61,123 nt of DNA, filler included, from Globobulimina sp. (GCA_003354225.1; 15 parts of 15 records of this genome joined end to end with filler, not necessarily neighbours in it); one strand, 5' to 3'. Positions 8,497 to 56,581 are shown, counted from the whole stretch's first letter. Made by a program: numbers and translations. The notes: generated by a model from the sequence alone, not told the origin.

Positions 8497-8630
8497 GGCG
8501 AGGACTGGCTTACTCAGTGAAAACTCTAATATCACTTTATGCCGTTAGCTCATCAGAAATAAAATACTATTAATCCGAACATTGTCATAATTTGTGCAAG
8601 GATACATGTATGGAATGCATTGAATAATGA

Positions 8631-9272
8631 CTATTTTTCAACATCGTACGTTGTTTTGAATATAGCAGTGTCATTGTCACCAAATGCATACTTTATAGAA
8701 TCAATAAGAAGTTCAGATTCAATTGTAAAATGCATAGAAAATTGATCTTTTGTTGCAATCCAAATTGTAAAATTATTCGTTTCTGTATTACATAAAAATA
8801 TAATGTCATCACCTTTACTTACTTTTAATTTACCGACGGCTTCAAAAAATAATGAACCTGTTCTGGTATTTGGAACATCAGTGTGATATTTGGAATCTCG
8901 GGAGAATTTTAACATTTCTCCCTTAATTAAATTGGTTAACTCCGTGCCAGTATAATTCTGTAATAATATCATACGAAAAAGTGTTACCGAATTTGATGAA
9001 TACTGACCCATTGCAAATTCCTTTGAAATGTATTTCTGTTTCAAATATGTCCACGTAAGTTTTGATGGTGGCAATGGATATGATAAACGAGTTAATGAAT
9101 GAGAAAATTTCGTTTTCAATCCTGGATAAAGCGGCATAGAATATTCATCATTGAATTTTATCTGTGTTTCTGGTTCAACGACAATAGCACTATAACTCAA
9201 TAAGGATGAAATACCAATGCACGTTCGCCATCTCCATCTGGATATAAATCGAGTAGCTCTCATACTTGCCAT
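8631..9272 (-). CDS. Probable mitochondrial chalcone-isomerase-fold protein (Aim18/Aim46-like)
   Basis: Arg-rich N-terminal presequence, VVEPETQIKF, and C-terminal KGDDIIF...IESELL pattern. Family resemblance is from memory. Confidence 0.4.
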   Translation of the reverse strand: MASMRATRFISRWRWRTCIGISSLLSYSAIVVEPETQIKFNDEYSMPLYPGLKTKFSHSLTRLSYPLPPSKLTWTYLKQKYISKEFAMGQYSSNSVTLFRMILLQNYTGTELTNLIKGEMLKFSRDSKYHTDVPNTRTGSLFFEAVGKLKVSKGDDIIFLCNTETNNFTIWIATKDQFSMHFTIESELLIDSIKYAFGDNDTAIFKTTYDVEK

Positions 9273-9564
9273 GTTACCTAGCTTTAAAATAAAACCTTCT
9301 GCTGAAATATCCACGAAAAGTGTTTGCTGACGAAAAGTATATCTGCTATACAAGTTGTATGCAGATTAGATTTGTGCTATGCCAGATAAAGGGACGAAAA
9401 GACTTATTTATTTAACAATATTTTAAACGGTACGTCTATTGGCGTGGTACAACCATACAAGAGTAGAGAAGGTCAAATGAATATAATTTCATTACCAACA
9501 TTACATATTTTTTATTAGTAAAAAAAAAGAAAAGCTATGAATTATTAACAAGATAACAGTTTGT

Positions 9565-10158
9565 TTATCTTCCACCAGTTGGATATTTATGGAACCGTGA
9601 TCTTTCTCGAACTTTTTTGAAATAAAATGGCCGATTAAATTTATTCTCTTCCAATTTTTTACGTTTTGCTTCGCGTATTTTTTCATATTTTCTGGCTGGC
9701 GCAAATAATGGATTTACATAGCCCTCGGGAGGTCTAATTATTTTATATGTATATTATTTTTATTGTTTTTAAGCATCGCAAAATCGCATCAATGTATGTA
9801 AATATATATAATTGTGCAAGGATAATGTCAGTATATACCTCCATGGATACTCAGCATCATAATCAACCGGAATGGGGGGAATTGTCCTTCTTCGAAAAAT
9901 ATAATCGTATACACCATGTTGTTGGAATAAGAATAAGGTGGGGATCCATCCCATACCTAACCACCACACTCGCCATCCAATGGGCCAATCATAAAACCAA
10001 CAAGCTGAGGATAGGCGTTTTTTGACATCAGTTCCATCCTTTAAAAATCCAAAACAATCCCACACTTGCTTTGATACTCTACGTGTTTGCAATGTGAATG
10101 GTTGGTAGCAACGATTTAATAATGGCTTATAAACACCATTTCGTCGTAAAACATTCAT
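9565..10158 (-). CDS. Small single-TM protein, probably mitochondrial
   Basis: Basic presequence-like N-terminus and one TM helix. Intron 9734-9838 continues YPWR-PPEGYVNP to a stop at 9565. Confidence 0.6.
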
Positions 10159-10241
10159 GTCTATGTTGGATTGTTTCCAAATGTCACGTACTTTTTTTCC
10201 TGAAAAAACTCTGTATTTCTAGCTGAAAATATCAACAGGCA

Positions 10242-11880
10242 ATGAACAACACCTTCATGACTCAGGATGATAAGGACGTGATTAAAGAAGGCATTGTGTT
10301 TAAGAAAGGTGAAGGATTTATGAGTGGGTGGAAAGAACGTATGCCTTTTTATATATTTTATTGAATAAAAATTATATGTTTTTTTTTATTAATATAAGGT
10401 TATTTAATCTTATATACTGGCCAACGTTTATCATATTTTGTCATTGATGGTTTAGAACTTAAAGGATCAATATACATAAATAATCTGTCTTCGTCAAACA
10501 TTACATCATCAAACAAATGCAATAAGTCGGAAGGTGCGAATTTTGGTTTTTCTATACAAACAACCAAAAGAAAATGGGAGTTTGCCATCAAATCATCCAA
10601 AGAAAGAGAGGAATGGATAAAGAAAATACGTCTAACCGTAGCAAACCAAAAAAGACACTCCAATTTATATGCAAAAAAAGTAAACAAAGCTAGCGATGAT
10701 CAATCAATACAACTCATACGGTCCAATACGAGTAATAGTATGGGTGTTGATTTCGCGCGAGTGCAGACACGGAGTTCCTCGAAATCTGCAATTGCTGCTC
10801 CAATGCATCCATATTATCAACAATATGCTGCGCAATCGCAACAATACAGCAATAATTATAAACAGGCACAACAGCAAAATGGACAGGGATATAATAACCA
10901 TTATAATTACGCACAATATAACCATTATCAGCAACAGCAACAGCAAGCACAGCAACTGCAGCAAGCACAGCTACATCGCAATTCCTCTTTCACTCAGAAT
11001 GGATATAATAATTATCAACAACAAGCCATAGCAGCCGCAGCAACAGCAACATCATGGAACGCCAATACTAACCATCAGCAAAATAAAGCAAATAAACCAT
11101 ATAAATCATCGCTAAAAAGTGTTTACAAGGGTATGGCTGATTTATTTTTGCGACTTTGCGAATATAAACATGCTTGAAAAAGGGTTTAAGATCAAACGAT
11201 ATGATAATACGACGAGATTTAGTCATTTGCTGCGTGGCTATATACGGAAATGTATGGAGGAGGAGAATAAATTTGGATTGAAATTACAAAATTTATGCCA
11301 ACAATATACAGGGTTTTTGTTGACAGGAAATGTGTCACCACTTTCAAATTCTCGATTGTTCCAAAACAACGAGAAAATGGCGACGGCGATGGTGACATTA
11401 TTGTGTGACGGAATGAATAAATATTTTTTAAATGATATAGAATTGCTATATAGAGGAAGTAGGGACGGGTTGAAAGCAAAAGCATTTCATTCGAAATGTG
11501 ATGGACATCCAAAAACATTGGTTTTATTGTATACAAATTTTGGAAATATTTGTGGCGGATTTACCGACGTGGCATGGTCGACGGATAATAAATATCATGC
11601 GGATAAGAATGCATTTTTATTTGTTTTGAACAGTGATGGTGATGGCGGTGAAATATTTCACTTAAAACAAGGTGAAGATAGAAATGCAGTGTTGCATTAT
11701 AAGGATTATGGTCCGACATTTGGCAAAGGACACGATTTAGCCGTGTTTTCGTTATCTGATAATAATATGGATACACAAGCATGCAATTATTCATTCTCAT
11801 TTATATCGAATAAATTTATTGGTGGCTGGATGTATTGCAAAGTTATGGAATGCGAAGTGTTCCAAATTCATACCCTATGA
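10242..11880 (+). CDS. PH domain - Gln/Asn/Tyr-rich linker - TLDc domain protein
   Basis: Exons 10242-10338, 10399-11130 and 11183-11880. PH: KEGIVFKKG...WKERYLIL...EREEWIKKI. TLDc: LLYRGSRDG...FHSKCDG...GGFT...YGPTFGKGHDL...EVF. Confidence 0.88.
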
Positions 11881-12256
11881 TATTAGCTTTCGTCTGATCA
11901 TATATTTCTTTCTTTTTTCGTTTTCTTTTTTTGTTGTTGTGGATTATATCTTTTTATTGTTATTTTATATATTAATTTGTTTTCTGATATTTTTTAGGAA
12001 AATGAATGTGAAACATTAACATCGAGGAGCACTTATTTTGTATTGGTTAATTATAGTCATTTATAGAGGATGGATGACAGAGAAAGGCGATCATATAATT
12101 TCTTTACCAAAGCATAAGTTTAAATATCAACAACTAACAATAATCACAATACAATNNNNNNNNNNNNNNNNNNNNNNNNNNNNNNNNNNNNNNNNNNNNT
12201 TAATTAATTAANNNNNNNNNNNNNNNNNNNNNNNNNNNNNNNNNNNNNNNNNNNNA

Positions 12257-15200
12257 TTGATCCAAACAGTATTCATAACTTACGACTCGAAGGCAACAAT
12301 ACATTCAAAATACAGTGATATTGCAGCCATGCAGGCGAGCGGAGGCACAAATTTCCAATCCGCTTTTGATAAAATTAAAGAAATATTAATTAAGTATAAA
12401 GCTGATTGTATGGAAGGTCGCATTAATGAGAATATCAGCATTTGTTTTTTAACCGATGGCCAAGATAACTCTTCATCAAATCGAAAAGAATTAGTTCCAA
12501 ATTTTAAAAAGATTATACGAGATTATTGGGTCAAATATAGCCACGGCAGCAATGGCAATGTGGTTGTTCATGCGATTGGGTTTGGCAGTGGCTGCGATAA
12601 GCACTTTTTGGAGGAATTACGCAGTGACAAATTGGGTACGTTTCGATACGCGGAGCCGAGTGATTTGGATGAAATGTTATGTTCGAAATTGAAAGCATTA
12701 TTTGCTAAAATCAGTGCATCGACGGCTATCCCAATTACATTGGATTTAAAAGATTGTGAGAAATTATTTTCATTTTACAAAGCAAAAAGTGACATTGTTG
12801 GTGCTGAGGATGACCAAAAAGACAATGTGATGGCTGTTCAGTTCCCAGTGAGTTCAGACAAATGTGGTGTGTTTACACAATGGATTGAATTGCTTGATGT
12901 TGATATTGATGATGAAAAAAAGAGAGATGGATATAATATTTATATAAACAGTGAAATGGATAAACATAAATGTGTAAATATTGAGATATCGATGGATGAT
13001 AACAATATTAATCAAGAAAGCAATATGGAACTATTCAATAAATGGATGTTAACATTAACAGATGATTTGGCCGCACAAATTTATAATTTAAGCAATGAAT
13101 ATTATACAAATTATGATGAAATTACATTTGATTTACACTGTGCTTTAATCCAACAAAACTGCCAAGTCTTAGAAGAGATTATCAATGTGGACAATAAATC
13201 ATTTCTGCAGTTAACTGATAAAATCGAATATTTATTAAATTCCATCATAGCTTTACGTCAGGGTTTATCCATAAATATGGGCAAAATTTCAGATATGAGA
13301 TTTGCATCACAGTTTGCCTCATCTTCGCGGCTGGCAACCTCCAATAAACACTGTGATCGACGAGAACAGTTAGAAGAGAAATATCGACAAATTGATTTGT
13401 TTGGGGAAGAGAAAAAAAGTCAAATCAAACGCGAAATATTACACAAATATGCATTTGATAACAAACACAAAGACAGGAATAAGTTACAAACAATGATTAT
13501 GGACATGTTGAATGATAAAGAAATCATTGCGTTTCTAAATAGTGAGAATATCGACGAAAAGGATATTTTATATGTTGATAATGATGGAAATAACGCTTTG
13601 CATTTATGTTGTTATGCTGGTAAATTTAATGTGGTCAAAGAAATATTATCAAAATATGGGAAACATATTGACATTGAATATGAGAATCCGGAGATTGAAA
13701 CTGCACTAACTTTAGCCATAAAAAAACGTGGTTATTATCAAACGATCCGAGTTTTATTGTCGTATCAAGCCAAAATTGATCCAGCTCGGTCTGAAGCATT
13801 GGAGCAGTTTGCCATTAATAATAATTATGTTATCACTGCGAAATTAATTCGGGATTTACGGACAAATTCGTCAGATCCGAATAAATTTATGAGCAGAGAG
13901 TATTTAATATATTTATATGAAGACGCAATGCAAAACAACAAAGAGATTGATGTACAGAAATATTTGCAATTATTTCTATCAAAACAAATGACAAAATATG
14001 TAAAGTTAATGATTAATAAACATAATGGAGTGGTTGACATAGATATGTTATTAAAATATTGTATTCCTCCAAAACCAGATGGCGTTGAGACGGAAAAATA
14101 TTTGAATCTCTCGAAAATATTATTGAATAAAGACAAAACATTGCTCAATCAACAAAATAAGGCGTTAGAAACGGCCTTATTCAAAGCTGCAGAAAAAGGA
14201 GGTTTGGCGCACTGTGAATATTTTCTGTCCTTAGGCTGTGCGGTCGACACAGTCAATGAATTGGGAAACACACCACTTTGGATATCAGCCGCAAAGTTGT
14301 ATCCGTGTATTATGAAATTATTAATCTCGCACGGCGCAGACGTGAACCATCAAAATATAAAAGGCAATCCGCCTCTGTATAACTTCTGTATTCGTGGCAA
14401 TGAAAAAGTTTGTAATCTGCTATTGTCGACAAATCGCGTGCAAATTGAAAATATGACAAACAAAAATGGCGATACGTTGATATTAATTTGTTGCAGAAAT
14501 AAAAATTGGAAGATCTTACCGTTGCTATTAAACTATGTGTCTTTGGAATTTGTGAATTTTAGGGCTCATATTGACGGATTTAACGCAATTTTTGCATCGG
14601 TTGAAACAAATTCTGTCGAATGTATAAAAATATTACATTCTTTTGGCGTGGATTTGAACCAAAAAACAGAGGATGATAATGCGATATTAGCGGGTGCCAC
14701 ACCTTTGCATTTGGCGTGTTATTATAAACGCTATGAGTCAGCAAAAGTATTATTGAGTTTAGGAGCAAATGTAAATGCAATGGACAATATTCATAAACAA
14801 ATTCCATTGACTTTAGCTGTGATACAATTGAATATTGAAATTATTAAATTGTTGGCGCGAAAATCAAATATTTCATTGAAAGATAATTATGGTAATACTC
14901 CGCTGTCGTACTGTCAAAATAATATTGAAATTCGCAAGTTATTAATCAATCCGTTATTGGATGTATTAAATAGTTTATGTACCGGCAAATTTAGAGAAAA
15001 TAAAGAAAGAATTGCTTGTAATGTATTGAGAAGATATTGTGGTTTAAGTGGTGGATGCTTTGCAACATCGTCAGCTGTAAATATTTGTGATTCTGACGGT
15101 ATGACTCCATTAATTTATGCTGTAATAAACAAGAAATATAATATTATTAAAACATTATTCTCATTGAACGCTGATCCAAACATAAAGAATAAATATGGAG

Positions 15201-16239
15201 TAAATTGTTTTATTTTCAATAAATGGATAAAAAATATTCAAATACAGCAAATATTGGCAAAATATTACGATGCGTTGTCGCAAAATCAACGCAAATATGT
15301 GGAAGCTGCAGTGAATAGATTGGAAAAAGCAAATAGTTTGTCATGGTTTAACTCTTTTACTTTAAATATGAATGCAGCGAATGATGGTATTTTCACTGTG
15401 TTGACGTATTCGGGAATTGCAGAAAGAATGCAAATGTTTATTCAAAATGTTACAAAAGCAAATGATTCGAATGCAATTCGGCAAAAGTTATTAGCTTTGG
15501 ATTTAGAGGAAATTAATAAAAAATATGACGAAAATGCTGTAGAAGGCGCGTTTAAATTTAATGATAAACAATTTGATGAGAATAAATATTTAAATATAAT
15601 ATTAAATTGCAAATTATTTACAATTAATTATATTGCCGGTGAAGAATATGGAGGAAACAAAGACGAAGCGGTTTTATCCGAAGCCAAAGATATATTTTTA
15701 TTAAATTTATACACAAATAATGACATATTATGCAGTTCAATGAATTATGAAATAATAAATAATTTGGCGAACCCAAATATAAATATTTTATATTCCATAA
15801 AATTATTAAATAATATATTAATGCAATTGGCCAGTTTTATTGGCGAAGTATTTGTTGGATGCAATAAAAGAATCGATCGAAGTTTGTTTTTAGTCAATTC
15901 TGTATTTTCATGGAATGCTTTTATTTCATGCAGTTCCCAGTGGCGAATGGCAATAAATAATTTACCAGATTTTACTACGAAAAAAAATGAAGGAACTGTT
16001 TTTTTAATTAAATCAAAAACGGGTAAACATATTGGAAGATATTCACAATTTTCATTTGAATCGGAAGTAATTTTCAAACCAAACACAACATTTAAAGTGA
16101 CGCAGTGGTACAAAGGTGATGTTATTTGTTTGGGACAAGAAAATATTCGAAAAAATACATTTGGAATTCAATTTAATGAAGAAATGAATAAATATTTAAA
16201 TTCAAATAAAGCATTAATTATTGAATTGGAAGAGGTTTA
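12257..16239 (+). CDS. VWA domain - ankyrin repeats - ADP-ribosyltransferase (R-S-E clade-like) protein, 5' partial, intronless
   Basis: VWA: GGTNF, FLTDGQD, VHAIGFG. Many ankyrin motifs (GNNALH, GNTPLW, GATPLH, GMTPLI). ART: LYT...FISCS...GTVFLIKS...ESEVIF. Probable stop TA[N] at 16238. Confidence 0.82.
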
Positions 16240-16339
16240 NNNNNNNNNNNNNNNNNNNNNNNNNNNNNNNNNNNNNNNNNNNNTTAATTAATTAANNNNN
16301 NNNNNNNNNNNNNNNNNNNNNNNNNNNNNNNNNNNNNNN

Positions 16340-16768: not shown

Positions 16769-16912
16769 AATTGCTGGTTAATAAATGTACCGACCAGTGT
16801 GGTTTGTAAAGACGTTCTTTGTTGCTGTGGTCAGGATTATTTTGAATGCAGCTTGGGTTTGAGTTTTTTTTTTGTGCAGTTAATGTTTTTTATTTACATA
16901 TCTCACACCATC

Positions 16913-17761: not shown

Positions 17762-17902
17762 TCTATTTTATATAAACTTATTTCTTTCCCCTCACATGAG
17801 TCACATTTATTTAACGCTGTGTTTAGTAGTCATTCTATAACCAAACTTTAAGGGTATTAAATTAAACAATTTTAAAATAGTAAAATAAAAAAAAAATACG
17901 AG

Positions 17903-18822: not shown

Positions 18823-20323
18823 TCATTTTTTCTGTTTCTGTGCTTGTAACTGAGCCCTTATCCATTTAAACCTTTCCACACATTCCTTTTTGGTTTTACC
18901 CGGCACCATTTCCGCCAATTTATCCCATTTCTCATTGGCCGGCAATGTCCTAACCGCTCTCAATGCATTCTCCAATGCACTCTGTTGTTCCTTTGTCCAT
19001 ATATCCATATCCTCGCTGTCACTCTCCTCATCTTCATCACTTTCATCATCTTCCTCCATTTGTGCGCTCTTCGCTTTCTTAGCCACATTCTGTTTGCCCT
19101 TCTTATTCCGACCCTTTTTGGTCAAATCCTTGACTTTTCCAATGATATCCTCCACGCTCCGATGTCTCCCAATCGTTTTTTGAATCTTTTCCCATCGATT
19201 CATAGTGCCGCCGGGGAACCTCATCACTGCATTCACCAACAAATTAACCTCCTCCTCACTCCATGGTTTACCTAATTTCTTCTGTTGTTGTTCCAATTCT
19301 TTTTTTCTCCGTAATTTCTCCGCTTTTTTCTTCTCTTTTTTTACCTTTTTCGCACTCACTAAAACTGCATCAAATCTCTCCAATTGTAACTCATTGCTAC
19401 TTTCATTCAATATACTTTTTATAGCCTCAATACTCGCATTAAAACAGATAGTGTCAATATGTTGACCCTTTATGTGCGAACTACGAAAATATTCCTCATT
19501 GCACAAAGTGCGCAATTTCAATGGGATTTGCACTTTTTCCTGTCGCATTTGAGCCATTTCTCGTTTTTTTTTATTATCAATCGCTAATTGCGCCAGTCTC
19601 AATTTCTCTGCTTTGAGAAAAATAGCATGTTCTTTCTCCTCTATTTCTCGTTCTTTTTTTAGTTTGCGCTCTTTTTTCATCTTCAAATCGTATAAAAACA
19701 CTCGTTTCTCCTCACATAACATACGCGTAACTCTCGGGTCGCGCACATATGCGTTTTCCACCATTTCTTGCACCTTTAATGACTCTTCTTTTTTATACGG
19801 TGCCTGTAACAACGCATTCTCTTTCATCATCCATTTCTTTTCCTTGTTATTTTCAGCGTTGTTCAAATCAAAAACGTTGGCTTCAATTTCAGCTTCGTGC
19901 AAAAACAAGCGCCATGACTTGAAATTGCGCCAAGATTGATAGAATTTAGAGACATAGCCAGGGCGTGATTTTTCATCGCCTAATAACATTTTGGTGCCGT
20001 AGCGGCTCCATTTTTTAAAATATGGTGCGAATAGTTCATAAAATTGTGCTTCGTTTACAGTTAAACGATGTTGTTCCATTTCAGCGGAATTAAATAATTT
20101 TACATTTTCTTCATAGTCACTATCGTTTTCTAAATCTGATGGTATTTTTTCATATTCGTCGGTGTTTGACGCTATTTTACTCATTGCAATCTGGCCTGGG
20201 ATATCGTCATCAAATTCGATTTGAGAGTCATGTTTTTGTTTTTCGTAGGGATCGGATAGTGTATCAAATGCTTTTTGGATTAATTTATAACGCGCTTCTG
20301 CCTGTTTTCGGTGTTCTTGTGGT
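18823..20323 (-). CDS. DNAJC2: DNAJC2/MPP11/zuotin ribosome-associated J-protein, 5' partial
   Basis: End of J-domain (YKLIQKAFDTLSDP), zuotin-homology FYQSWRNFKSWR and AYVRDPRV, and two SANT/Myb domains (WSEEE...RWEKI; WTKEQQ...KWDKLAEMVPGKTKKEC). Confidence 0.92.
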
Positions 20324-26707: not shown

Positions 26708-27985
26708 TTAAATAATTTGCCAGAGTTTAACACAATTATCGTTTTGCAAGCCTCCGGAAGCAAACACAACAGGATCATTATCATTATGATTATGCTTAAA
26801 GTTTGTAGCAATAACCACATCATTATGTGCTTTAAATTTCTTTACAATATTTTTAGTTTGAATATCCCAGAAATATATATATCCATCTTCCGACCCACAA
26901 ACAATGCAATTCAGATTATTATTCCTTTTAATATTAATAAAGTCTGAAAATAAACAAAACTTCTCATTTTTATGCCCTTTATATGTTTTGACTGTTTTCG
27001 CAGTTTGAAAATCCCAAATCCTTATTGTATTATTCAATGTACCGCTTAATATATATTGTCCGTTTGGTGTCCATTTAGCAAACGATATTGGTGTTGGATC
27101 AAAACCCAATGTTTTAATACATCTCATTGAGGACATATCCCATCCTCGAATTAATCCGTCATAGCCTGCGGATAATAGCATTGTACCATCGGCACAAAAT
27201 GACAAACAGCACACTGGATCGCTATGAGCCGATAATATTTTTATATGTTTGGCACTGCGCACATCCCATAAAATTACTGTTTCATCAAAACTGCCGGACG
27301 CCATTATATTGCCCTGGCCGTTGAATGCCAAACATAATATGTAGTGGTTATGAGTAACATTCTTATTTATAGCCATATTGCTATTTTGCGTGACTTGCGG
27401 CACTTGTTTGCATTCTTCATTTGTGTTGCTGTTATTTGTGTTGTTTGCATTGTTGTTTTTGCTGTTTGCGTGCTGGTGCAAGGACGAATAGATTTGATTT
27501 TCAATAAAAATATCATGCAAAAACAACCCACCATTCATCTCTTTGTTGTTTAATAATTTTGTGTTAATATCTAAGTTGTTTGGCGATGGAAACAGATGGA
27601 TTGGTTTTCCTTTTTCAACATCCCACATAATAACTAATTGATTATCAGAACATGAACACATATAATTAGAATCCGATGACCACACAAAATCTGATATTCC
27701 CTTTGCATGACCTGATAATGTTTGGCATTTAATCCATTTGTTGGAGGAACATGATCTCGAATACAAATTGATAAAAGAGTCTGCAGCTAAGTCAATAAGC
27801 AACAATGTACAGTACATGTTAGTTGATAATAATTATTAAAAGAAACATACATTAACATTTTATGACATACAGCTTGATGCTAAAATACGTCCATTTGGGG
27901 AAAAGGATACTTTGCTTATTCCACGTTTATGATCTTTGATAGATTGGAGCGGATGAACTTGTAATTGACATGAAACGGTTGCCAT
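26708..27985 (-). CDS. WDR5: WD-repeat protein 5 (COMPASS subunit Swd3/WDR5)
   Basis: Intron 27787-27870. GHAKGISDFVWSSDS, AHSDPV, KTYKGHKNEKFCLF, GSEDGYIYFWDIQTK and NDNCVKLW match WDR5. Carries a long Asn-rich insert. Confidence 0.88.
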
Positions 27986-37974: not shown

Positions 37975-39966
37975 ATGGCTTTGGTATGAATATAAATTGG
38001 CACTTTCATACGATATGAATGCATGTTTCATTTTATATTTAGTTTGGATTACCAGACGGCGATGGAAACTCATGGTTTGGGCAATTATTTGTGATGGCAT
38101 GTTATGGCTTTATATTATACAAAGCAGCAGTATTAATTGGAGATGGCTCCGAGAAATTATTATTAATATACGGACCAGGCATTGTGGGCGGATTACTAAT
38201 CCCGATATTGGGCGCAGTGCCTGATGGCGCCATAGTATTAGTGTCGGGATTGGGGAATAGAGCACAGACACAATGCCAAGTGTCCACCGGTGTCGGTACC
38301 TTAGCCGGTTCCACCATAATGTTACTAACTATCCCCTGGGCAATCTCATTATTTTTAGGCTGCCGCGATCAAGACCTAATCACTGGAGTTGCTGCTTCGA
38401 AGCCAAACGGCAGACCCAAATACATCGAAGGATTCAAACCCTTAAAATCATGCATCACCACTTATGCCAATACTGTTTCCGGTGCGAAAATCATGATTTT
38501 CACGGCTATCTCGTACTTAATTGTATTGATACCGGCTATCATTGAGAAAAACGCGCCCACTCAGCAACAAATACAAGAAGAACACTATCCCGCTTTGGTT
38601 GGCTTTATTGTCTGTGCTGTGGCGTTCGTGGCATATTCTATATTCCAACTCGTTGACAGCAAAGCTCAAACTACGCAGGAAATGCAACAGACTAAATTGA
38701 AATTTTTAAAGTGGCAGCAATCGGTGGGCAGAAAAATCGCATCCACTGATGTTGCTATCAAAATGGCCTTCGACAAATTTGATAAAAACAGTGATGGTAT
38801 GATATGTTATCTGATTATATTTATATAATACACATCCTTGCACTGCGATGACATGATTAAGGCACTATTGATAGAGAAGAGTTGCAATCAGGTTTTAAAC
38901 AGTTGGGATTGGTGATGGATAGAGGCGAGATTGTGAAGTTAATGAGCGATTATCAACAGGATACTGATCGACATACATTGACAGAGAAAGAGTTTGGTGA
39001 CGCGATCAGGAAATGGTCGCGCAATGTACTCAAAAGACAAAATACGAATTACGAGGGTGTGTTACAAATGAGCACCATACATAGGGTGGACATAAAAACA
39101 CAGAAAAGCCAAGCCGTTATCACTGTGGATGTAGAGGACAGCGGTGATAGTAATACGAGAAAGAAAGATGATAAGTCATCGTTGTTAGGCAAAGGTAGCA
39201 AACGTAGATCATATAACAGTGTGGAGGATGATAATGAGGCACAAGAAGAGAAATACTTAATTAGTGATAAAAAAGAGGACTTTGCTGCTGTTGATATTGA
39301 TGATGAAAAGGAGCAAATGTTGGAAGATATGTGGAAGGAATTGATTATGGAACAGGAGATGGAGCAAGAAGAGGATGACGAAGGTGATGAGGAATATGTA
39401 CATTTGACTGACACACAATTGATTGTTCGCGCAGTGGTGCAGTTATTGTGTGGTACATTGATTTGTTGCATATTTTCGGATCCCATGGTAAGTGTTATTG
39501 GAGTTTTTAGTGAAACTATAGGCGTTTCGTCATTTTTTGTATCGTTTATAGTGACACCAATAGGTATGATTTTGTATTGTTTCTTGAACGTCAATCGCAC
39601 CATTTTTTGTGTATATATATATAAATAGCATCGAATGCGGCGGAAATATATTCATCGATATTGTTTGCAAAGAAAAAAACAAAGGAAGGTGTTTCAATGG
39701 GTTTTAGTGCTTTATATGGGGCGGCTTGCATGAACAATACATTTGTATTATGTATATTTTGCGCTTTGATATTTTTTAGAAGGTTGCAATGGACGTTTAT
39801 TGCGGAAACATTGGTGATATTATTAACTGTTATTATTGTGGGAATAAATGGAATGAGAGAAACTGTAATTGTATGGCAGGGATTTATTGTTATTTTATTA
39901 TTCCCCTTGTCTTTGGTGTTGGTGGCTGTATTGGATCCATTGTTGGACGATGTTACCAAATGCTAA
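37975..39966 (+). CDS. EF-hand-containing Ca2+/cation exchanger (NCL/EF-CAX type)
   Basis: GGLLIPILGAVPD, GVGTLAGSTIMLLT, spliced EF-hand DKNSDGTIDREEL (intron 38797-38861), FSDPMV, VTPIASNAAE and LYGAACMNNT. Confidence 0.9.
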
Positions 39967-40053: not shown

Positions 40054-40731
40054 TTGTATATATTAACATTAATATAAATTACATATACATTTTATCTGTC
40101 AGTTTTTCTGGCTAAGTCTGGCAGCATAGACTAGCTCTTGCGTACTAAAAAACTACAATGATCCGTACAGCGAAACGTTCCTCTGACACTACAAGCACTC
40201 ATAATGATGAAAAAGACATTGAGCGAAGTTTCTCGTCAGAAAATATTCATCAAGATCTTATACATCTAATGATTAACTCTGCATCAAATGCATCGGATGC
40301 CAACATGGTAAGAATGCCAACTGTCGAAGAAGAATTATTTGAAGAACTATTGTATTTGAATAAAAAACCAATATGTGTCTGTGGCCGCGCATTGCGTCCA
40401 ATTAAAAACAAATTTGTTGGTTTATATTGCCACAGCTTTGATGATGCGGATGTATATCCATCATGTTCTGAATGCAATGCATCTTTCGATCCTAATGCAA
40501 ACACAAAACTTACAGTTACAGCTGATGATATTATATGGCTCTGTCCTTCCAAACAATTATACCCTCATTTATTTGGCTTTTTTTTATGTAAAACATGTTG
40601 CGTTGAACAAGTTGAGTTATATATTTTATATCTTATATTTATCTCTGTTTCATTGTATATATTAACATTAATATAAATTACATATACATTTTATCTGTCA
40701 GTTTTTCTGGCTAAGTCTGGCAGCATAGACT
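40054..40731. repeat. 79-bp exact direct repeat at 40054-40132 and 40653-40731 (period 599 bp)
   Basis: Identical TTGTATATATTAACATT...GCAGCATAGACT. The second copy runs to the contig end. Confidence 0.92.
40158..40676 (+). CDS. Hypothetical Cys/His-rich zinc-finger-like protein
   Basis: CVCG...CSEC...WLCP...HLFGFFLCKTC. Confidence 0.55.
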   Translation: MIRTAKRSSDTTSTHNDEKDIERSFSSENIHQDLIHLMINSASNASDANMVRMPTVEEELFEELLYLNKKPICVCGRALRPIKNKFVGLYCHSFDDADVYPSCSECNASFDPNANTKLTVTADDIIWLCPSKQLYPHLFGFFLCKTCCVEQVELYILYLIFISVSLYILTLI

Positions 40732-42057: not shown

Positions 42058-42123
42058 TGAATGCAATCTGTGTTATCACCAAAAAGTTTTTCTTGCATGT
42101 TTTTAATAAAACTATAAATAATA

Positions 42124-48151: not shown

Positions 48152-48375
48152 GATGTTATTTTCTGATTTTCAGATGTGTTTTTTGATTTTGTTAATTATT
48201 ATTTATAAATAATATAATTATTATCCCTTGAATCTTGATCCTTGCGCTGTTTACGAATTTGAATGCGATGCAATTATACAAATGAAATTGAAAAAAAAAC
48301 AACAACTGAAGTTACTGAACGCTAAAATACCAAAGTAAACAATTTATAACTGTTATAACTATCACATGATTCACA

Positions 48376-48889
48376 TCACATAACATAATTTGAGCTTTCT
48401 CCGAGAAGCTTTTGCCTGTTTTGTTTGGGCGTATTTTGGAATAAATACATGGCGTCCACCAAATTATGTTTACCCATCAGATTTACAATATCTTCAATAT
48501 TTTTAATGTGATGATAAAATAACTCGAATGTAATAATACCATTCTTTTCAAAAATCGCGTAATAATCACCAAACAATTTCAATGATTGCAACCAACTGGA
48601 AAATGAAGAAATATCCTTCTTAAATTCATCAATCTTTTTTAACATCATCCTAATGTGTAACTCATTCATTCTTATATTATTTTTTAAAAACGTATAATCA
48701 ATAAATTCAATTAAGCGGATATCATTTATCTGTTTTTCATTAAATCTGTCCACATAAAATTGCCCAATTGCACCCAAAGCAACTTTTTCTTTGATAAATC
48801 GCTCAAACTCAATCTCGTGAATTTTTGATTCATTTTCAAAATTTTCACCAGCGTCAATTTGAAGATATTCACTAAAATCATCACATAAA
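48376..48889 (-). CDS. C-terminal fragment with SAM-like domain(s)
   Basis: FSSWLQSLKLFGDYYAIFEKNGI; truncated by the contig edge. Confidence 0.5.
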
Positions 48890-48989
48890 NNNNNNNNNNN
48901 NNNNNNNNNNNNNNNNNNNNNNNNNNNNNNNNNTTAATTAATTAANNNNNNNNNNNNNNNNNNNNNNNNNNNNNNNNNNNNNNNNNNNN

Positions 48990-49198
48990 TTATAATCAGA
49001 ATTGAAAAACATTAGTTGTGCCCTATTCATTGTTGATGGGAAAATAACCCCTGAATTCGAATTATTATTAATGGTATCTAAACCCTTTATCATCAATAAA
49101 CAACTGCCATCATCATACAGGCCTTTGTAAATTCCCTCCAAATCACTGACAACTAAAGAAAATAAACTAATCAGTTTCAGAATTATTAGTGTCATCAT
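48990..49198 (-). CDS. N-terminus of a secreted or membrane protein
   Basis: Signal-peptide-like MMTLIILKLISLFSLVVS; truncated by the contig edge. Confidence 0.45.
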
Positions 49199-49271
49199 TA
49201 TTACTCCAACTCATTGTCCATGGTTAAAGTATGAAAAACATCTTTTAAGTGCAGGTGACGTACAATACATA

Positions 49272-51499
49272 ATGCCAAAGAATAACGTAAAAGATGGATG
49301 GAAATCCCATTGGTTGGGTTCACAAGAGATTGTATTTGAGGCCTTTATATTGGTAGCAATATTTGTTGTTGCATTTGGTTTACGATTATTTGCCGTTATT
49401 CGATTTGAATCAATTATTCATGAATTTGATCCATGGTTTAATTTTCGATCAACACGCCATCTGGTAGAACATGGTATCTATGAATTTCATAATTGGTTTG
49501 ATAATAAAGCATGGTATCCGTTAGGCCGTTTTGTTGGAGGCACGGTATATCCCGGATTAATGTGGACGGCCTCTTTAATACACTATATAGCACACAATTT
49601 TCTTAATATCCCTCTAAATATTCGTGAATTTTGTGTATTTACTGCACCAATATTTGCTGGTTTAACTGCTATTGTTACTTATTTATTTACCAAAGAGGTT
49701 TGGTCATCAAATGCAGGTTTATTTGCTGCCTTTTTTGTATCTCTAGTGCCGGGATATGTTTCAAGGTTTGTAGTCTAACTTTTGGTTTGTAGTCTAACTT
49801 TTGTAGTGCGCACAGATCTGTTGCTGGTTCATATGATAATGAGGCAGTTGCTATATTTGCTATGATGTTAACATTTTGGTTATGGGTAAAATCAGTTAAA
49901 ACCGGTTAAGTTCTATTAAAATTTATGATTAATCCTTGCACTTAAACTGATCTGATGTGTAATTGTAATGTATATAATATTAAAATAGGCTCTGTTTTCT
50001 GGGCAACTGGGTGTGCCTTGGCATATTTTTACATGGTAGCGGCATGGGGCGGATATATCTTTATAATTAATATAATCCCCGTTCATGCTGGATTTTTATT
50101 ATTTTGCGGTAGATTCTCATCCCGTTTGTATGTATCATACTGTATATTTTATATAATTGGCTTAATCTCATCAATGCAAATACAATTCGTATCATTTAAG
50201 CCAGTGTCCTCTCCGGAACATTACTTATCCCTCATCGTGTTTGTATTATTTCAGATCTATGCATTTGGCTTATTTTTACGCAAATTATCCACTATTGAAC
50301 ATGAACGCATTTTTTTACAATTTAGCATCTTATTATTAATTGGCGTGCTATTTTTACTGAGTGTCATAGCATATTTGGGTTACATCCCTGGATTAACCAT
50401 GCGGTTTTTAGCACTCTTAGGTAGTGACAGCGCCATAGTTATTGTTAAATCCGTATCCGAACATCAACCAACCTCATGGGGCACCTATTGGTTTGATGAG
50501 CACATATTAACATTCATGACTGCAACTGGCATCTTGTTGTGTTTTTGCAAAGTATCGGATGCAAATCTCTTTGCTGTCCTCTATGGCATATTTAGTGGCT
50601 ATTTTAGTAATATTATGATCCGCTTAATGTTGGTGGTGTCGCCCGCAATGTGTGTATTGGGTGCAATTGCTGTGTCGGAATTCATTAAATCCTCATTTGA
50701 AGTTTTAATCAAAAAAATAAAGACCGGCATTGGTAGTCAAAGTAAATCAATATTTAATAAAATCATATCGCTCGCAAGCATGATAATAATAATATATTTT
50801 TTATTTTTATTCACCATTCATTGCGTATGGGTGACATCCATCGCATATTCGTCGCCTTCCATTGTGTTGCAAGCACGCGGCGGTGCCACACCTGTCATAT
50901 TTGATGATTTCCGGGAAGCGTATCAATGGTTATACCATAATACCGGTGAAGAAGACAAAGTATTGTCATGGTGGGACTATGGCTACCAATTAACGGGTAT
51001 GGGCAATAAGACTGTCATCGTGGATAATAATACAAGGAATAATACCCATATTGCCACCGTTGGATTGACCATGGCATCGCGCGAAGAAGCGGCATATCCA
51101 ATTTTAAGACGTTTAGATGTTAAATATGTGGTGGTTATATTTGGTGGAATGATTGGTTATTCATCCGATGATATAAATAAATTCTTATGGATGGTGCGGA
51201 TATCCGGTGGCGTATTCCCGAGAGTGGTTGAATCAAATTATTATAATTCGCGGGGAATGTATACTGTGGATGGTACTGTTTCTGAGACGATGAAACATTC
51301 GATCATGTATAAAATGTGTTATTATAGATTTTGTTCGGTGTCTCAAAATTGTATGGATAGAACACGTGGTGTCTCCATTGGACATAAAAATTATAAACTA
51401 AAATATTTAGAAGAGGCGTATACTACGGAACATTGGATGGTGAGAATTTATCGCGTTAAAGATATTGATACACTGTCGAGATTTTCTTATACAGTCTAA
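49272..51499 (+). CDS. STT3: Oligosaccharyltransferase catalytic subunit STT3
   Basis: [39 protein letters not shown] and DINKFLWM; introns 49766-49815 and 49905-49988. Confidence 0.98.
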
Positions 51500-51581
51500 C
51501 TTTGACTCTTAGGCTTAGCCTTACTTAACATCCTTTTAATTAACATTAACTTGTCAGAGTACAGTACCGTACCGATATAAA

Positions 51582-52968
51582 ATGGGCACTCAATCTTCCA
51601 AATCAAAACGCAAATTGAAACAAGAGATTGGAATCCTCGATCAAATATTTCATGAGATGGCGGTCCGATCGCCAGATGATACAATAGCAAAAGATACCTT
51701 TCTCAAATTCTTTGATTTGCCTGGTTTGATACATTTTTATTATTTATTTTTTTCAAGCATTCGATACAAACAACAGATTTTTAAAAGGTGTTTTAGGTGA
51801 TCGGTTATTTGAAGTATTTGATACAAAAAAAACAGGAGTTATAGATTTTGAAGAATTTATTGATGGCTTTCAAATATTTTCACGAGGTGATCCATCCAAA
51901 AAAATGGATATGTTATTTCAATTATTTGATCTCGATGGAAAAGGCGGTATCACCAAACAGGAACTATCCACTGTTTTGATGTCCATTGTAACACCGCCAA
52001 ATCAAGTGGTTAATGGTCCAAATAATAAATATAAATCACGGCGTAGTTCTGCCATTGTATCGCAAACCCCAACCCCACAATTGCTACCGCAACAAAATAG
52101 TTCTCCAAATTCTCCACAATCACCAATATCGCCAATATCTCCAAAATTAATAAACAATAATAACACGACATTACAGCCATTAGGAGGCGGAGGAGGAGGA
52201 GGAGATACTCCGGCTCTTGGTAATAATGACAGTAGTTTTATTTTAGATAAATTACAATCTTCATTTATCTCTGAAACAGAGACACAACCATTAAATATCG
52301 AAATGGTGCAGCAAAAAGTGGATCAAATTGTGAAACAGGCATTTGCTGAATGTTATGTTGATAAATCGTCTCGTTTGGATGCGCAAGAATTTCGAAATTG
52401 GATAAAAAATAAACCCGAAATTATCGATGCCTGCGAGGAATTATTTGTGCAGTTAGCATGGAATGGACCTCAAATTACATTGAGAAATAACTGTTACGTA
52501 TAATTACGTTTTTATCCTTGCACTTATAATAATAATAATAATATTATTATTTATTATTATATGCCTATACAGTCAATATGGAGAATGCAGAGAATATGTC
52601 TATGTATGATACCATTGATTTAGGATCAAATAGAAATGTTCACAGTGAATGTAGTGGCGATTGCAAGCTTCGCTTTGTATGCTCTCGTGATCAAATACCA
52701 CCGCCGCCAGAAAACAAAGAAGAGAAAGAGAGGGAATTACAGTATGATTATATAATATTAACTCATTCCACCGATACGCAACAAATATTTAATTTTTGTC
52801 CAAAATGCGGTAAGTCATTAATTCATCCATCCAATCCACCAAAGTCCAATATAGCATTGCAAGCACTCGCCAGCGCCTCGCCCAATTTATCTGTAAATAA
52901 TTCATCGGCCATGCCCATGACTGCCATGTCGCTGTCTCAGAGTATGAGAGGTATCGGCGGTGTGGACC
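51582..52968 (+). CDS. Probably myristoylated EF-hand protein (CDPK7/USP32-like N-terminus), 3' partial
   Basis: MGTQSS start; introns 51724-51787 and 52493-52572; LPGVLGDRLFEVFDTKKTGVIDFEEF and DLDGKGGITKQEL; downstream CxxC pair. Confidence 0.75.
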
Positions 52969-53068
52969 NNNNNNNNNNNNNNNNNNNNNNNNNNNNNNNN
53001 NNNNNNNNNNNNTTAATTAATTAANNNNNNNNNNNNNNNNNNNNNNNNNNNNNNNNNNNNNNNNNNNN

Positions 53069-53402
53069 AAGTTCTTGATCTATCGTTTAGATTTGAAAAG
53101 GTTGTGTTGTTTGTAAGGTTTGTATTGTCATTGATATTGTTAGCTGTGTTGATAAAATTAAGTGAGGAATCATCATTTATATTGTGATTTGTGTTAATAA
53201 TATTAAGGGTGGAATTATCTAATTTCGTCGCAATCTGATCCAAATTATCAATATTCATATCAATATCATCTTTATTTGCAACATTTGAAACTTCAATTTC
53301 TGAATCTTGTATTTCTACGCCACTGTTTTTCAAAGATTTCCATATGTCTTGAGTTTCTTGAATCAATTTGTCGAGTTCGTCATCGTTTGTGGTTGTGTCC
53401 AT
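53069..53402 (-). CDS. N-terminus of an Asn/Asp-rich hypothetical protein
   Basis: MDTTTNDDEL... open to the contig edge. Confidence 0.5.
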
Positions 53403-53466
53403 TCTCCTTTGCGCCACTAGCTGATATTTTTCAATCGTTACTGAGTAACGAAAACTGTTCAAGACA

Positions 53467-54264
53467 ATGACAGCAAATCCAGGAGAAACAGCGACTATCG
53501 ATCCAGATCAAGAATGGTGTGTTGCTAAGAATGCAAATTATAGGTCAACATCATGGTATTCGTCCGGCGATGGAAGTTTTGAAACAAAATTATCCAAAGA
53601 ATCACCATTGGATAGTTTTAGTGGATTAAATTATAACAAAATTGCAGTGAATTCCAATGAATATTATGGTCGTCACGAAGCGCCATTATTTAAATATGAA
53701 TTCGACGAAGATGAGTATTACACAAATTTAACTCCATCGAAAACAAACGAACAAGTTCAAGCTGAATTAAATGAACCTGGCGAGAAAATGGAAGCTAAAT
53801 TACAGGAATTTTTAGATAAAGGTTTGTAAAATAAATATACCATCGCAAAAACGCAACATTTTATATGGAATTTGCATATATCCATCCTTGCACTTTGTAT
53901 GTTTGTTTTAGGTGAAGATATTGTATGGACGCCAGCATTGGAATATATGTCAACAAATTGTGCAGTGCCGGTTGCGCGAGCCATACAATATGAGATAACA
54001 CCGTATTTTCAATTGAATACATTGGGATATCGCAAGAATTGGGCCAATACAAGAATTTGTGAGTATAAACCAGCAAAAAGATTGCAAACGAAATGGTATA
54101 ATGTGAACGGTGATTTCTTTTTTAGATTTCAAATGATGCGATGGAATTTAACTTCCAAAATGCGAATGAGATATTGGAAAATGATAATGGCCGCCGGTTT
54201 TGTCGGATTGATGCTCGATCATCGATATGCGAGACAATATAAACGAAAATTAAAATGGCATTAA
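53467..54264 (+). CDS. Hypothetical protein with C-terminal TM helix, possibly a mitochondrial inner-membrane subunit
   Basis: Intron 53822-53911 joins the two ORFs in frame. Ends in TM plus KRKLKWH, loosely like the C-terminus of ATP synthase subunit f. Confidence 0.55.
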
Positions 54265-54421
54265 ACTATACTGTATATGTTAGACATCTCGCTGAGACAA
54301 CAGACATATTTCCATTTAACTGTTGAATTCTCAATAATTTCTCATATCAGTCACTAAGATCAAGACCTTAAACTTTCAAAAACTTTTTTCAAGTAACGGT
54401 TAGTAACCTAGTCATCATAAA

Positions 54422-55690
54422 TCATGCAAGAGCCTTTAAAGCAAACGTGAGATATCCAGTATGTCCAAATGTCTTTCCAACAGGCCGCGATGTTACCATT
54501 TTTTCAAATGTATTATTTTCATCTTTACATTTCGACTTTGGCCGACTCCGTATTGTATGAATAGAATTGTTTGTATTCAAATCAAGTGCCGGGAATATAT
54601 GCTCCTTTATTAAAAGATCACGTTCCAACACCTCAAAAGTCCTTATATCCACAAATCCATTCATGCCTAAAACCTCACACGTTTTCTGCACCTGTTCAAT
54701 GCACGGCGAAAACGAACATATTTTGCCGTTATATTTCAAAACATTATACGCAGACTTTATAACTTTCCACGGCTTTGGCAAATCCAAAAACACGCCAGAC
54801 ACAAATTCCTTGTTCAACGCATTTAATTTTAATACCCAATCCTGTAAACTGTCCATTTTTTGCTGTGCCAACCATGAGAATTCATCAAATTTATCTGAAC
54901 CTCCAATGGAATCCGTATATTGAAATACATTTTTGTTTGCAACATCTTTTTGTTTATCCACCGATAGAATATTACTTATGAGCTGTATCAATTCTTTTTT
55001 ATTTGGGAAACCATTTTGTATCACATTTCGATGAATCACTGTAATTAAGTTATCAATTAATAAGTTTTTAAAATCAAGTCTTGCATATTCTGCACGGAAT
55101 TCATTGAATTCGAACGTGAATAATTGACCAAAGGGACTGATTACGCGTGCAAATGAGGTGGACAATGAACCGGAACCTGTGCCACTTTCAAAGATAATGT
55201 CATTTGGTTTTATTTGTAATAGAAAAGTAATCAATGATTTATCCGCATCGTATGATATTTGTGTCCGATGTAAGAGAGCCAATGTCCATAACTCACAGCT
55301 TGGACGCAATAAACATATTTCTCCATACCTTTGCATTGCAGTGCTTTTATGTTTCAATTGCGGATATTTTCTTTTTTTGCCAATGTGCTGATTTGTGTTT
55401 TTATTTTGATGATTTGATGATGTATCATTGTCACTGTTGTCATTTGATTTTTCTTCGTTTTTAGCTTTGTGTTTATGGTTTTTGCGTAGTTTTGATACAA
55501 TCCACGAACCAAATGGTATTCCAATCATATCATCGTGAGCAAAATGACCAAACTTGCAATTATAAATTTGTTTTGCTTCAAGCCGTATGGCGTGATAATG
55601 ACTCCGTGCTCCTGTCACAATGACCACATCACCATCTTTCGATAGCGTCTGGCGTTTGAAACGACGTTCTGAGCCTCCACCGTAATTCAT
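54422..55690 (-). CDS. TRM61: tRNA (adenine-58-N1)-methyltransferase catalytic subunit TRM61/GCD14
   Basis: ELWTLALLHRTQI, ESGTGSGSLS, TFEFNEFRA, VFLDLPKPW, SFSPCIEQV and GHTGYLTFA. Likely start ATG 55690. Confidence 0.95.
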   Translation of the reverse strand: MNYGGGSERRFKRQTLSKDGDVVIVTGARSHYHAIRLEAKQIYNCKFGHFAHDDMIGIPFGSWIVSKLRKNHKHKAKNEEKSNDNSDNDTSSNHQNKNTNQHIGKKRKYPQLKHKSTAMQRYGEICLLRPSCELWTLALLHRTQISYDADKSLITFLLQIKPNDIIFESGTGSGSLSTSFARVISPFGQLFTFEFNEFRAEYARLDFKNLLIDNLITVIHRNVIQNGFPNKKELIQLISNILSVDKQKDVANKNVFQYTDSIGGSDKFDEFSWLAQQKMDSLQDWVLKLNALNKEFVSGVFLDLPKPWKVIKSAYNVLKYNGKICSFSPCIEQVQKTCEVLGMNGFVDIRTFEVLERDLLIKEHIFPALDLNTNNSIHTIRSRPKSKCKDENNTFEKMVTSRPVGKTFGHTGYLTFALKALA

Positions 55691-55922
55691 GGGGTTAAAA
55701 TTAAATAATAAAATGTGCTTTTCGCGCAAAAAACCGCCAAGATCTTGTAGATAAAATTGCCGATAGAACATTAAATAAACAATGAAAATACAAAATCTAT
55801 CCTCTCCGTTTGCCTCTACCTCGCCCTCTTCGTTTGCCCTTCCCCCGGCCAGCATTTCTCCGCATATTGGATTTGCCCTTATTTTTCTTCCTGTGATTTT
55901 TGATATCTCTTTTCTGTTTTTT

Positions 55923-56581
55923 TTAGTTTTCGATGTCTTTGATTTCCTTTTGTTTGGCTTCAATCATTTCCTTTCTTTTTGCCACCATTTCTTTCTGTCG
56001 CTCGAGTCTTTTTTTCCGCGACTCCAACTTTGGGATCATTTTCCCCAAAGCAATGAGCAACGAATATCTATTTGGAATGTCATCTCTTCGCAAATTCCCA
56101 TCCGCGTCTTTCAATAATACGCGAACCCGACTTCGACAAAAAAAATCGCGCGGATGGCTCTTATTTAACTGTCACATGCAATGCAGTGCAGTGCAAGGAT
56201 TGCAATTCAATGGAAATAGAATTTAACTTCCATGTAACAGGGGAATCCCAAATATTTGCACACTTCTGCAATATCCTGCGGGTGAGGCTGCTGCACACAG
56301 TACTTTTTGCAAATTTTCCTGCCTTCTTGAAGGGTTTTCATTACATTGAGATAGCACGGATACACACATCTGTTCAGTTTAAATGCACAGTCAATGCTTA
56401 TTTGTGTCACATCATTGTGTATATACCTCCATTTTTTTGGATCCACGCCATATTTTTTTTCCAATCCATCCAAATTTTGGGTCATTCCAGGCATTCTGGC
56501 GAATTGTGGGCCTGGTCCGCCGGGAGGCATTTTAAATCCCGGAGGCATTTGGAAACCTGGAGGCATTCTTGGCATTGCCAT
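55923..56581 (-). CDS. SRP19: Signal recognition particle 19 kDa protein
   Basis: Introns 56370-56426 and 56169-56227 give KKWRCVYPCYLN...EGRKI...KSHPRDF..RSRVRVLLK. May extend to 55797 (see findings). Confidence 0.92.

Follow-up and report, generated by a model that had tools for sequence, protein, structure and literature searches.

Introduction

Near-invariant words in introns are rare and, to our knowledge, have to date always marked a direct contact with the splicing machinery, examples being the U12-type signals, the branch site of yeast and the rewritten system of Physarum. Here we describe a ten-letter word, ATCCTTGCAC (the decamer), that recurs in introns of unrelated genes in a stretch of 61,123 bases of DNA (the window) from the foraminifer Globobulimina sp. 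(GCA_003354225.1). It is present in seven exact copies, all in the sense orientation of the local gene and six within predicted introns. The decamer is real, intronic, confined to the sense strand and specific to this genome. It is neither splice site nor repeat and has the appearance of an RNA signal not described until now.

Among the closest described systems is that of the U12-type introns, with the consensus [G/A]TATCCTT for the 5′ splice site, TTCCTT[G/A]AC for the branch site (10.1101/2020.10.12.336362). An earlier note on this DNA had remarked on a likeness to both signals, and against this consensus the likeness is real. In both cases a subset of introns carries a conserved sense-strand word with an ATCCTT/TCCTT core; the U12-type words are kept by pairing with small nuclear RNA (snRNA), as PMC3584512 describes. 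The decamer, on the other hand, is an internal word at no fixed distance, in introns with U2-like donors (GTT.. and GTATG.), and has GCAC in place of [G/A]AC. It is also far more frequent, being found in about 13% of the predicted introns, whereas U12-type introns make up less than 0.5% in most species.

Two further systems offer partial parallels. In the minor splicing of Physarum polycephalum a pairing-based intron word has likewise been rewritten in one lineage and occupies a large share of introns (10.1101/2020.10.12.336362); there, however, the branch motif is TTTGA, its partner is the known U12 snRNA core GCAAAGAA, the donors are U12-type and the acceptor follows after 9–12 nucleotides (nt). 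The U11 small nuclear ribonucleoprotein-binding splicing enhancer (USSE) resembles a U12-type 5′ splice site yet is not used as one, acting instead from non-coding RNA upon U2-type sites. It depends on the minor spliceosome and consists of a tandem pair, found in two particular genes, whereas the decamer is a single word in unrelated genes. A second partial word is found near the decamer only at 53884 (ATATCC just upstream) and at 9814 (GTATCCAT, 24 nt upstream); with one copy per host intron, the tandem arrangement of the USSE is absent.

Papers on foraminiferal genomes describe introns with canonical splice sites and nothing further (PMC6783311, PMC3079666), and the main text of a pan-eukaryote survey (PMC10639083) makes no mention of Rhizaria or foraminifera. 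A text search of the literature for the decamer or its 9-mer gave, among the matches listed, primers for the polymerase chain reaction and unrelated sequences.

Results

The window is composed of 15 unrelated contigs of 3977–3986 nt each, sorted by length and joined by artificial spacers of the form N44-TTAATTAATTAA-N44. The sequence counted for statistics amounts to 59.7 kb (59,723 nt), and its GC content is 28–36%. Among the named relatives of the largest open reading frame (ORF) of its STT3 gene, those at the top are Ammonia sp. (84% identity) and Reticulomyxa filosa (69%); a second gene has a relative in Elphidium margaritaceum, and by these relatives the DNA is foraminiferal.

By how much does the decamer exceed chance? 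An exact-match search returned the same seven copies that the earlier note had listed, on four of the 15 contigs (2, 1, 2 and 2 copies), against 0.099 expected on both strands from an order-3 Markov model (Poisson p = 1.7e-11). Among words that are not simple it is the most over-represented at word lengths K = 9 (8 copies versus 0.25 expected), K = 10 and K = 11 (5 versus 0.025). When one mismatch is allowed there are 10 matches; 100 dinucleotide shuffles gave a mean of 3.62 (standard deviation 1.83, maximum 9), and none reached 10. The three one-mismatch copies, at 27476(−), 48238(+) and 60265(+), are by themselves about as numerous as chance predicts. One lies in coding sequence and the other two downstream of stop codons, by 87 nt (48238) and 44 nt (60265). 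The earlier note had already placed the copy at 48238 just 3′ of a gene; the position stands, but its membership of the family is doubtful.

All seven exact copies are sense to the local gene, and six of the seven fall within predicted sense-strand introns, although introns account for only 4001 of the 59,723 nt (6.7%). The probability of this is about 1e-8 if sense-strand intron positions are counted, and about 6e-7 if strand is ignored. The claim of the earlier note regarding strand and location is thereby borne out. Six of the 46 predicted introns, about one in eight, are decamer-bearing.

Where does the conserved unit end? It stops at 10–11 nt. The next letter is T in five copies, as the earlier note had it, and A in the other two; beyond this the flanks differ at every copy. 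When 30 nt on either side were compared in register over the 21 pairs of copies, 6–17 of 30 letters were identical, and only one pair stands out. This is 49932/56191, with 17/30 upstream and 14/30 downstream letters identical; their host introns (49905 and 56227) have the donor block GTTAA[G/A]TTCTATT in common, together with an identical spacing of 27 nt to the decamer. The remaining 20 pairs, at 6–16 of 30, are at the level of the AT-rich background. Since flanks are not shared, the conserved unit is the decamer itself. An adapter artefact, which the earlier note had considered, is contradicted by the differing flanks and by contigs from a DNA run (X1), which cover the copies at 49932 and 52514 unchanged. 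As an outside control we used 637,669 nt of eukaryote-like metagenome contigs, which hold one copy besides the U6 genes by which they were selected.

Gene models were obtained with a small hidden Markov model (HMM) gene finder trained on the same stretch, and they are noisy: the output of 51 introns fell to 46 once opposite-strand shadow genes were removed, and one acceptor is misplaced relative to the reads. Over one contig, 48990–52968, the window was also compared with contigs from run X1 and from three other runs (X6, X7 and X8), whose RNA nature is an automatic guess. The exons of X6–X8 are 90–99% alike to those of the window, with differences that are mostly third-codon-like transitions and small in-frame indels. 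Judged by these differences, which amount to about 5–7% between the exons of the two, the X6–X8 contigs come from a closely related strain or species, whose expression data could be used for the comparison of introns. Given four precise GT..AG removals, the simplest reading is that they are transcripts. The copies of the decamer, their host introns and two doubtful copies are as follows.

49932–49941, plus strand: decamer copy in STT3 intron 2; exact match; starts at +28, 47 nt to the intron end
49905–49988, plus strand: STT3 host intron, 84 nt, GTTAAG...ATAG; X6, X7 and X8 contigs skip the 84 nt, X1 reads through
52514–52523, plus strand: decamer copy in the intron of an EF-hand gene; exact match; starts at +22, 49 nt to the intron end
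52493–52572, plus strand: EF-hand gene host intron, 80 nt, GTTACG...ACAG; spliced contigs
53884–53893, plus strand: decamer copy in the intron of a gene for a small conserved membrane protein; exact match; starts at +63, 18 nt to the intron end
53822–53911, plus strand: small membrane-protein gene host intron, 90 nt, GTTTGT...TTAG, phase 1; homologues
56191–56200, minus strand: decamer copy in the SRP19 intron; exact match; starts at +28, 22 nt to the intron end
56169–56227, minus strand: SRP19 host intron, 59 nt, GTTAAA...ACAG; Pfam profile continuity and HMM model
38834–38843, plus strand: decamer copy in the second intron of a gene for a membrane protein with an EF-hand loop; exact match; starts at +38, 18 nt to the intron end
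38797–38861, plus strand: predicted host intron of that gene, 65 nt, GTATGA...TAAG; HMM model and reading frames
9814–9823, minus strand: decamer copy in the intron of a small gene without Pfam match; exact match; starts at +16, 80 nt to the intron end
9734–9838, minus strand: host intron, predicted only, 105 nt, GTATAT...TTAG; HMM model joins two ORFs in different frames
8594–8603, minus strand: decamer copy in a 134-nt spacer, reading GT+ATCCTTGCAC; exact match; no predicted intron
48238–48247, plus strand: one-mismatch copy ATCCTTGCGC, 87 nt past a stop codon; membership doubtful
60265–60274, plus strand: one-mismatch copy ATCATTGCAC, 44 nt past a stop codon; membership doubtful

For four of the six hosts, evidence that they are spliced comes from outside the gene models: from spliced contigs for two, from a Pfam profile for one and from homologues for one. 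The identity of STT3 follows from PF02516 matches, the GT..AG placement of 49905–49988 being read from the sequence. In the EF-hand gene, which has EF-hand Pfam matches on its upstream exon, records 11, 14 and 20 of X6, X7 and X8 jump from 52492 to 52573. Five of five full-length homologues of the small membrane protein, one of them from Elphidium margaritaceum, read ..LDKGEE.. over the 53822–53911 junction and thereby fix the 90-nt intron; the two ORFs of the window align up to that G and from it onwards. The Pfam SRP19 profile runs through positions 1–50 on the upstream ORF and 49–94 from residue 3 of the downstream ORF. The introns at 38797–38861 and 9734–9838 are predicted from reading frames and ORF structure; at the former, the flanking ORFs (..FDKNSD / TIDREELQ..), joined by eye, restore an EF-hand loop over the junction. 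The host genes have no relation to one another; they encode STT3, SRP19, an EF-hand protein and membrane proteins.

The seventh copy, at 8594, lies where the earlier note had put it, before the start of a Ras-family gene (Ras Pfam match). Its spacer extends on the minus strand from the stop at 8631–8633 to the ATG at 8496. The 134 nt at 8497–8630 are all that separates this stop from the next ATG on the same strand, so that 3′ end, promoter and 5′ untranslated region (UTR) must overlap or be tiny. This copy alone reads GTATCCTT, in which [A/G]TATCCTT overlaps the decamer, and it is in no verified intron; GCTAAC...AAAG downstream would permit a 5′-UTR intron of about 70 nt.

How is the decamer placed within its introns? 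It starts at +16, +22, +28, +28, +38 and +63, in keeping with the variable donor distance of 15–62 nt given in the earlier note, and from its end to the intron end there are 80, 49, 47, 22, 18 and 18 nt. Since both distances vary, the decamer is tied to neither splice site. The host introns are all short GT-AG introns, of 59–105 nt; the remaining introns have a median length of 64. In six of six the acceptor is the first AG after the decamer. These introns hold almost no internal AG, which makes the first-AG acceptor uninformative with regard to a branch-site role. In local folds the pairing probability of the decamer is 0.23–0.62, compared with intron means of 0.43–0.64, and no structure is common to the copies.

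The host donors are GTATAT, GTATGA, GTTAAG, GTTACG, GTTTGT and GTTAAA. Non-consensus GTT donors do occur among them, as the earlier note had pointed out, but the link to weak donors is unspecific: spliced contigs also skip two motif-free introns of the same genes with such donors, ~49766–49815 (GTTTGT) and 51724–51787 (GTTTGA). GTT donors are present in 4/6 hosts versus 9/34 other introns (p = 0.07), a comparison confounded by their concentration on the last three contigs (8 of ~10 introns in the HMM set), GTATG. dominating elsewhere. On the contig 48990–52968 all four introns supported by spliced contigs start with GTT (GTTTGT, GTTAAG, GTTTGA, GTTACG) and so have T at +3, where most eukaryotic introns have a purine. 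The first STT3 intron, 49766–49815, contains a tandem duplication of GTTTGTAGTCTAACTTTTG, which presents a donor and a CTAAC branch-like site twice, and in a minor X8 contig the cut at this intron is moved by 2 nt.

Do the introns that lack the decamer carry another signal? A motif search by expectation maximization over 31 motif-free introns brought out a TGCATA-like pattern that is weak, and no pronounced branch consensus. Strand-biased intron words include ACTG (14 versus 2), ACTGC (8 versus 0) and also TGAT, which suggests ordinary ACTGA-like branch sites elsewhere.

Other ideas were set aside: a snoRNA (small nucleolar RNA) host or mirtron was rejected by eye, there being no C/D or H/ACA boxes in common, and likenesses to a 3′ splice site with CAC for CAG and to the complement of the 18S 3′ end (6–7 nt) are weaker.

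Complementarity to U6

What might the decamer pair with? Its reverse complement, GUGCAAGGAU, is one letter off a segment of U6 snRNA. The Rfam consensus of that segment, CCCCUGCGCAAGGAUGACAC, is complementary at 9/10 positions, and real U6 genes that read CCCCUGUGCAAGGAUGACAC are complementary at 10/10. The decamer is thus the perfect complement of a natural U6 variant (…CUGUGCAAGGAUGA…) found in metagenomes; a perfect partner exists in nature. We searched a metagenome collection with the pattern ACAGAGA, 10–24 letters, TGTGCAAGGATGA, and obtained 117 matches in 115 stretches, 65 of the 117 with the U6 spacing of 16. An Rfam U6 match of 64–112 bits coincides with the pattern site in 14 of the 23 loci scanned; the nine scanned without such a match were L016, L020, L025, L032, L065, L066, L074, L099 and L109. 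This set (loci L001–L115) consists of environmental eukaryote contigs of 17–61% GC, and among such contigs U6 genes whose internal stem-loop has U for C in its loop (..CCCCUGUGCAAGGAUGA..) are widespread.

The segment concerned, ..CUG[C/U]GCAAGGAUGA.. (Rfam RF00026), takes part in U4/U6 stem II, and it is the U-variant that the decamer complements exactly. By textbook U4/U6 pairing, the decamer would be what the U4 5′ end reads in U-variant species. All known pairings of this segment, however, are with U4 or with U6 itself, and none involves an intron. Pairing with U6, as judged from complementarity, is a lead and not a finding.

Discussion

We tentatively favour, while stopping short of calling it probable, the reading that the decamer is an element which works at the RNA level in U2-type introns and which an snRNA recognizes by base pairing. 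ATCCTTGCAC(T) would be a cis-element of the pre-mRNA, present once per intron and in the sense orientation in a subset of short U2-type GT-AG introns, and carried at least once by an untranslated spacer as well. It would act on the RNA during splicing, where an extra contact between intron and snRNA may anchor or time the spliceosome on introns that are AT-rich and have weak signals of their own. Candidate partners would be (a) that stretch of U6 which otherwise pairs with the U4 5′ end and afterwards makes up the 3′ strand and loop of the internal stem-loop, or (b) a U12-like branch-site-binding sequence. We infer the action on RNA, the mode of pairing and the identity of the partner alike.

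Pairing with an snRNA is preferred to a short protein footprint because ten positions are kept without degenerate copies: seven exact copies stand against 0.1 expected, with one-mismatch copies at chance. There is also a precedent, the near-invariant U12-type branch site, which is kept by snRNA pairing and co-evolves with the U12 snRNA in Physarum (10.1101/2020.10.12.336362). The snRNA-pairing element put forward in the earlier note stays the best lead, with U6 as candidate partner by virtue of its 10/10 variants; it is unproven.

Several observations weigh against this reading. The decamer has no set place in the intron: it begins at +16 to +63 from the donor and 18–80 nt lie between it and the acceptor end, as would suit a protein site or a DNA element equally well. 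If pairing were the constraint, G-U-compatible variants would be expected in introns; there are none, and the two such one-mismatch copies lie in coding sequence and a 3′ flank. The U6 segment is normally occupied, by U4/U6 stem II and then by the internal stem-loop, and we know of no precedent for an intron that pairs there. Position 11, T in 5/7, is unexplained by pairing with the U6 variant, which has U opposite. A 9/10 complement would arise by chance somewhere in ~1.3 kb of snRNA with a probability that we estimate at ~0.04–0.08. The decamer resembles four different spliceosomal words (U6, the U12 5′ splice site, the U12 branch site and the U1A loop), a warning against over-reading any one of them. 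The sample, moreover, is only 59.7 kb, and at the Rfam gathering threshold there is no snRNA within the 61-kb stretch, the three matches at E up to 5 being at the level of chance.

Nor could the U6 variant be tied to a foraminifer among the 115 loci. None of 87 ORFs of the window matches any of these loci, and the 23 loci that were scanned hold no other snRNA gene, hence no U4. Two loci, L026 and L080, were considered as foraminiferal since they bear the accession prefix of unassigned contigs in a foraminifer-associated metagenome (PMC6783311), but they were rejected at 44% GC, compared with 28–36% in the window. Their PAP2-like ORF has five relatives, by which no tie to foraminifera could be made.

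What would the decamer mean for foraminifera? If every eighth intron or so of a foraminifer carries such a word, strictly on the sense strand and independent of both splice sites, the genes of a phylum with barely explored genomes would have a major structural feature that has gone undescribed, and knowledge of it would better the prediction of foraminiferal genes. Should the partner be U6 or a U12 relic, a new mode of intron recognition would be implied. The decamer could also explain the 2.1% of Reticulomyxa introns that PMC11347168 scored as ‘minor-like’ although it found no minor snRNAs in Rhizaria. In its most specific form, the proposal is that the decamer is a U4-mimic in foraminiferal U2-type introns which pairs with the stem-II/internal-stem-loop segment of U6, or else that it pairs with a U12-derived snRNA that survived the loss of the minor spliceosome. 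We regard this as unlikely as it stands; were it so, there would be a third, position-free RNA contact, a new snRNA–intron interaction in about one-tenth of the introns of the phylum.

Could a protein read the decamer instead? As the binding site of an RNA-binding protein, a reading that the earlier note had also listed, it might enhance or silence from within the intron, or else signal retention or processing, one candidate reader being an RNA recognition motif (RRM) of the U1A/U2B″/SNF type, which binds AUUGCAC. This is possible but rather doubtful. The free position within introns and the one copy in a spacer suit a protein site. CUUGCAC matches 6/7 of the U1A loop heptamer, which is known from U1 stem-loop II and the U1A 3′-UTR element (PMC2203988); UUGCAC is common to the decamer and the heptamer, and both are found in non-coding parts of pre-mRNA. 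U1A, moreover, selects AUUGCAC in linear RNA also, and uses it in the 3′ UTR of its own pre-mRNA (PMC2203988; PMC5992148), and the one-mismatch copy at 60265 contains the exact heptamer. On the other hand, the first position of the heptamer is C in 7/7 copies, in place of an A1 that is essential to U1A; the change from A1 to G costs 5 kcal/mol according to PMC2203988. The site of U1A usually lies in a loop closed by C-G, whereas no consistent hairpin surrounds the decamer, which has in addition four more invariant letters. Its 10–11 invariant positions exceed the reach of a single RRM. TTGCAC is not enriched in introns without the ATCC part: in the scored introns all five sense copies of TTGCAC belong to the decamer.

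A DNA-level reading, in which the decamer is an orientation-dependent word of promoter-proximal transcribed DNA, comparable to signals for intron-mediated enhancement or to a transcription-factor site placed in early introns (first or second), we hold to be unlikely. Ten exact base pairs are typical for DNA-binding proteins, each of the six intronic copies sits in predicted intron 1 or 2, within ~350–950 nt of the predicted start, and the seventh is 98 nt upstream of an ATG. The genes are short, however, so that for most introns the start is less than 1 kb away regardless. No copy of the seven is antisense, and only one is intergenic, though the sequence has no less intergenic than intronic DNA.

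Might the copies be shared by descent rather than by function, as the core left over from an introner-like mobile element that creates introns, or from some other copy mechanism? The earlier note had suggested such a relic, and the flanks give it no support; we consider it very unlikely. Exact copies without degenerate relatives do resemble young repeats, three of the four positive contigs bear two copies each, and the pair 49905/56227 shares its donor block and spacing as described above. Introner-like elements, however, place a common sequence in many introns of unrelated genes over the whole length and ends of the intron, whereas only 10–11 nt are in common here and the decamer is the only enriched word. 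Outside that one pair the flanks are at background; there are no terminal repeats or target duplications, and intron length and position of the word differ. A decayed repeat free of selection would not hold exactly ten letters in 7/7 copies.

Least of all do the hosts appear to be true U12-type introns, which the minor spliceosome would splice from a lineage-specific branch site TCCTTGCAC; this is most improbable, and the canonical U12-type class is largely refuted, failing on 5′ splice site and distance. TCCTTGCAC equals the consensus TCCTT[G/A]AC (10.1101/2020.10.12.336362) plus one extra C, and offers an unpaired A. Its complement contains GCAAGGA, with the same U-to-C change as the core of the Physarum U12 snRNA described in that source. 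The A of GCAC is 20–24 nt before the acceptor in three of six hosts, and ‘minor-like’ introns are scored in Reticulomyxa filosa, as noted above. The other three hosts, however, have it at 49–82 nt (−20, −20, −24, −49, −51 and −82 in all), against an optimum of 11–13 nt (PMC3584512). The donor [G/A]TATCC occurs in 0/6 hosts, GTTAAG and GTTACG being fixed by spliced contigs, and the consensus T at position 1 is replaced by A. PMC11347168 found no minor snRNA in Rhizaria. Nor does the window contain a canonical U12-type intron: apart from the copy at 8594, matches to [A/G]TATCCTT are coding, antisense or outside predicted genes, and the canonical TCCTT[AG]AC occurs once, at 19127(+), outside predicted introns and antisense to a predicted minus-strand gene.

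The rest of the probability we leave to something not thought of.

Other features of the window

Two observations concern contigs in their own right. The whole contig at 12256–16239 (plus strand; 3984 nt) is, in the HMM models, one coding segment open at both ends with no predicted introns, and on that prediction it would be a piece of a very large protein gene. At 40054–40132 and 40653–40731 there is an exact direct repeat of 79 nt, the copies being 599 nt apart and the second reaching the end of the contig; either a segmental duplication in tandem or an overlap left by the assembly accounts for it. Because the repeat covers an intron–exon stretch, the HMM predicts the ‘same’ intron twice.

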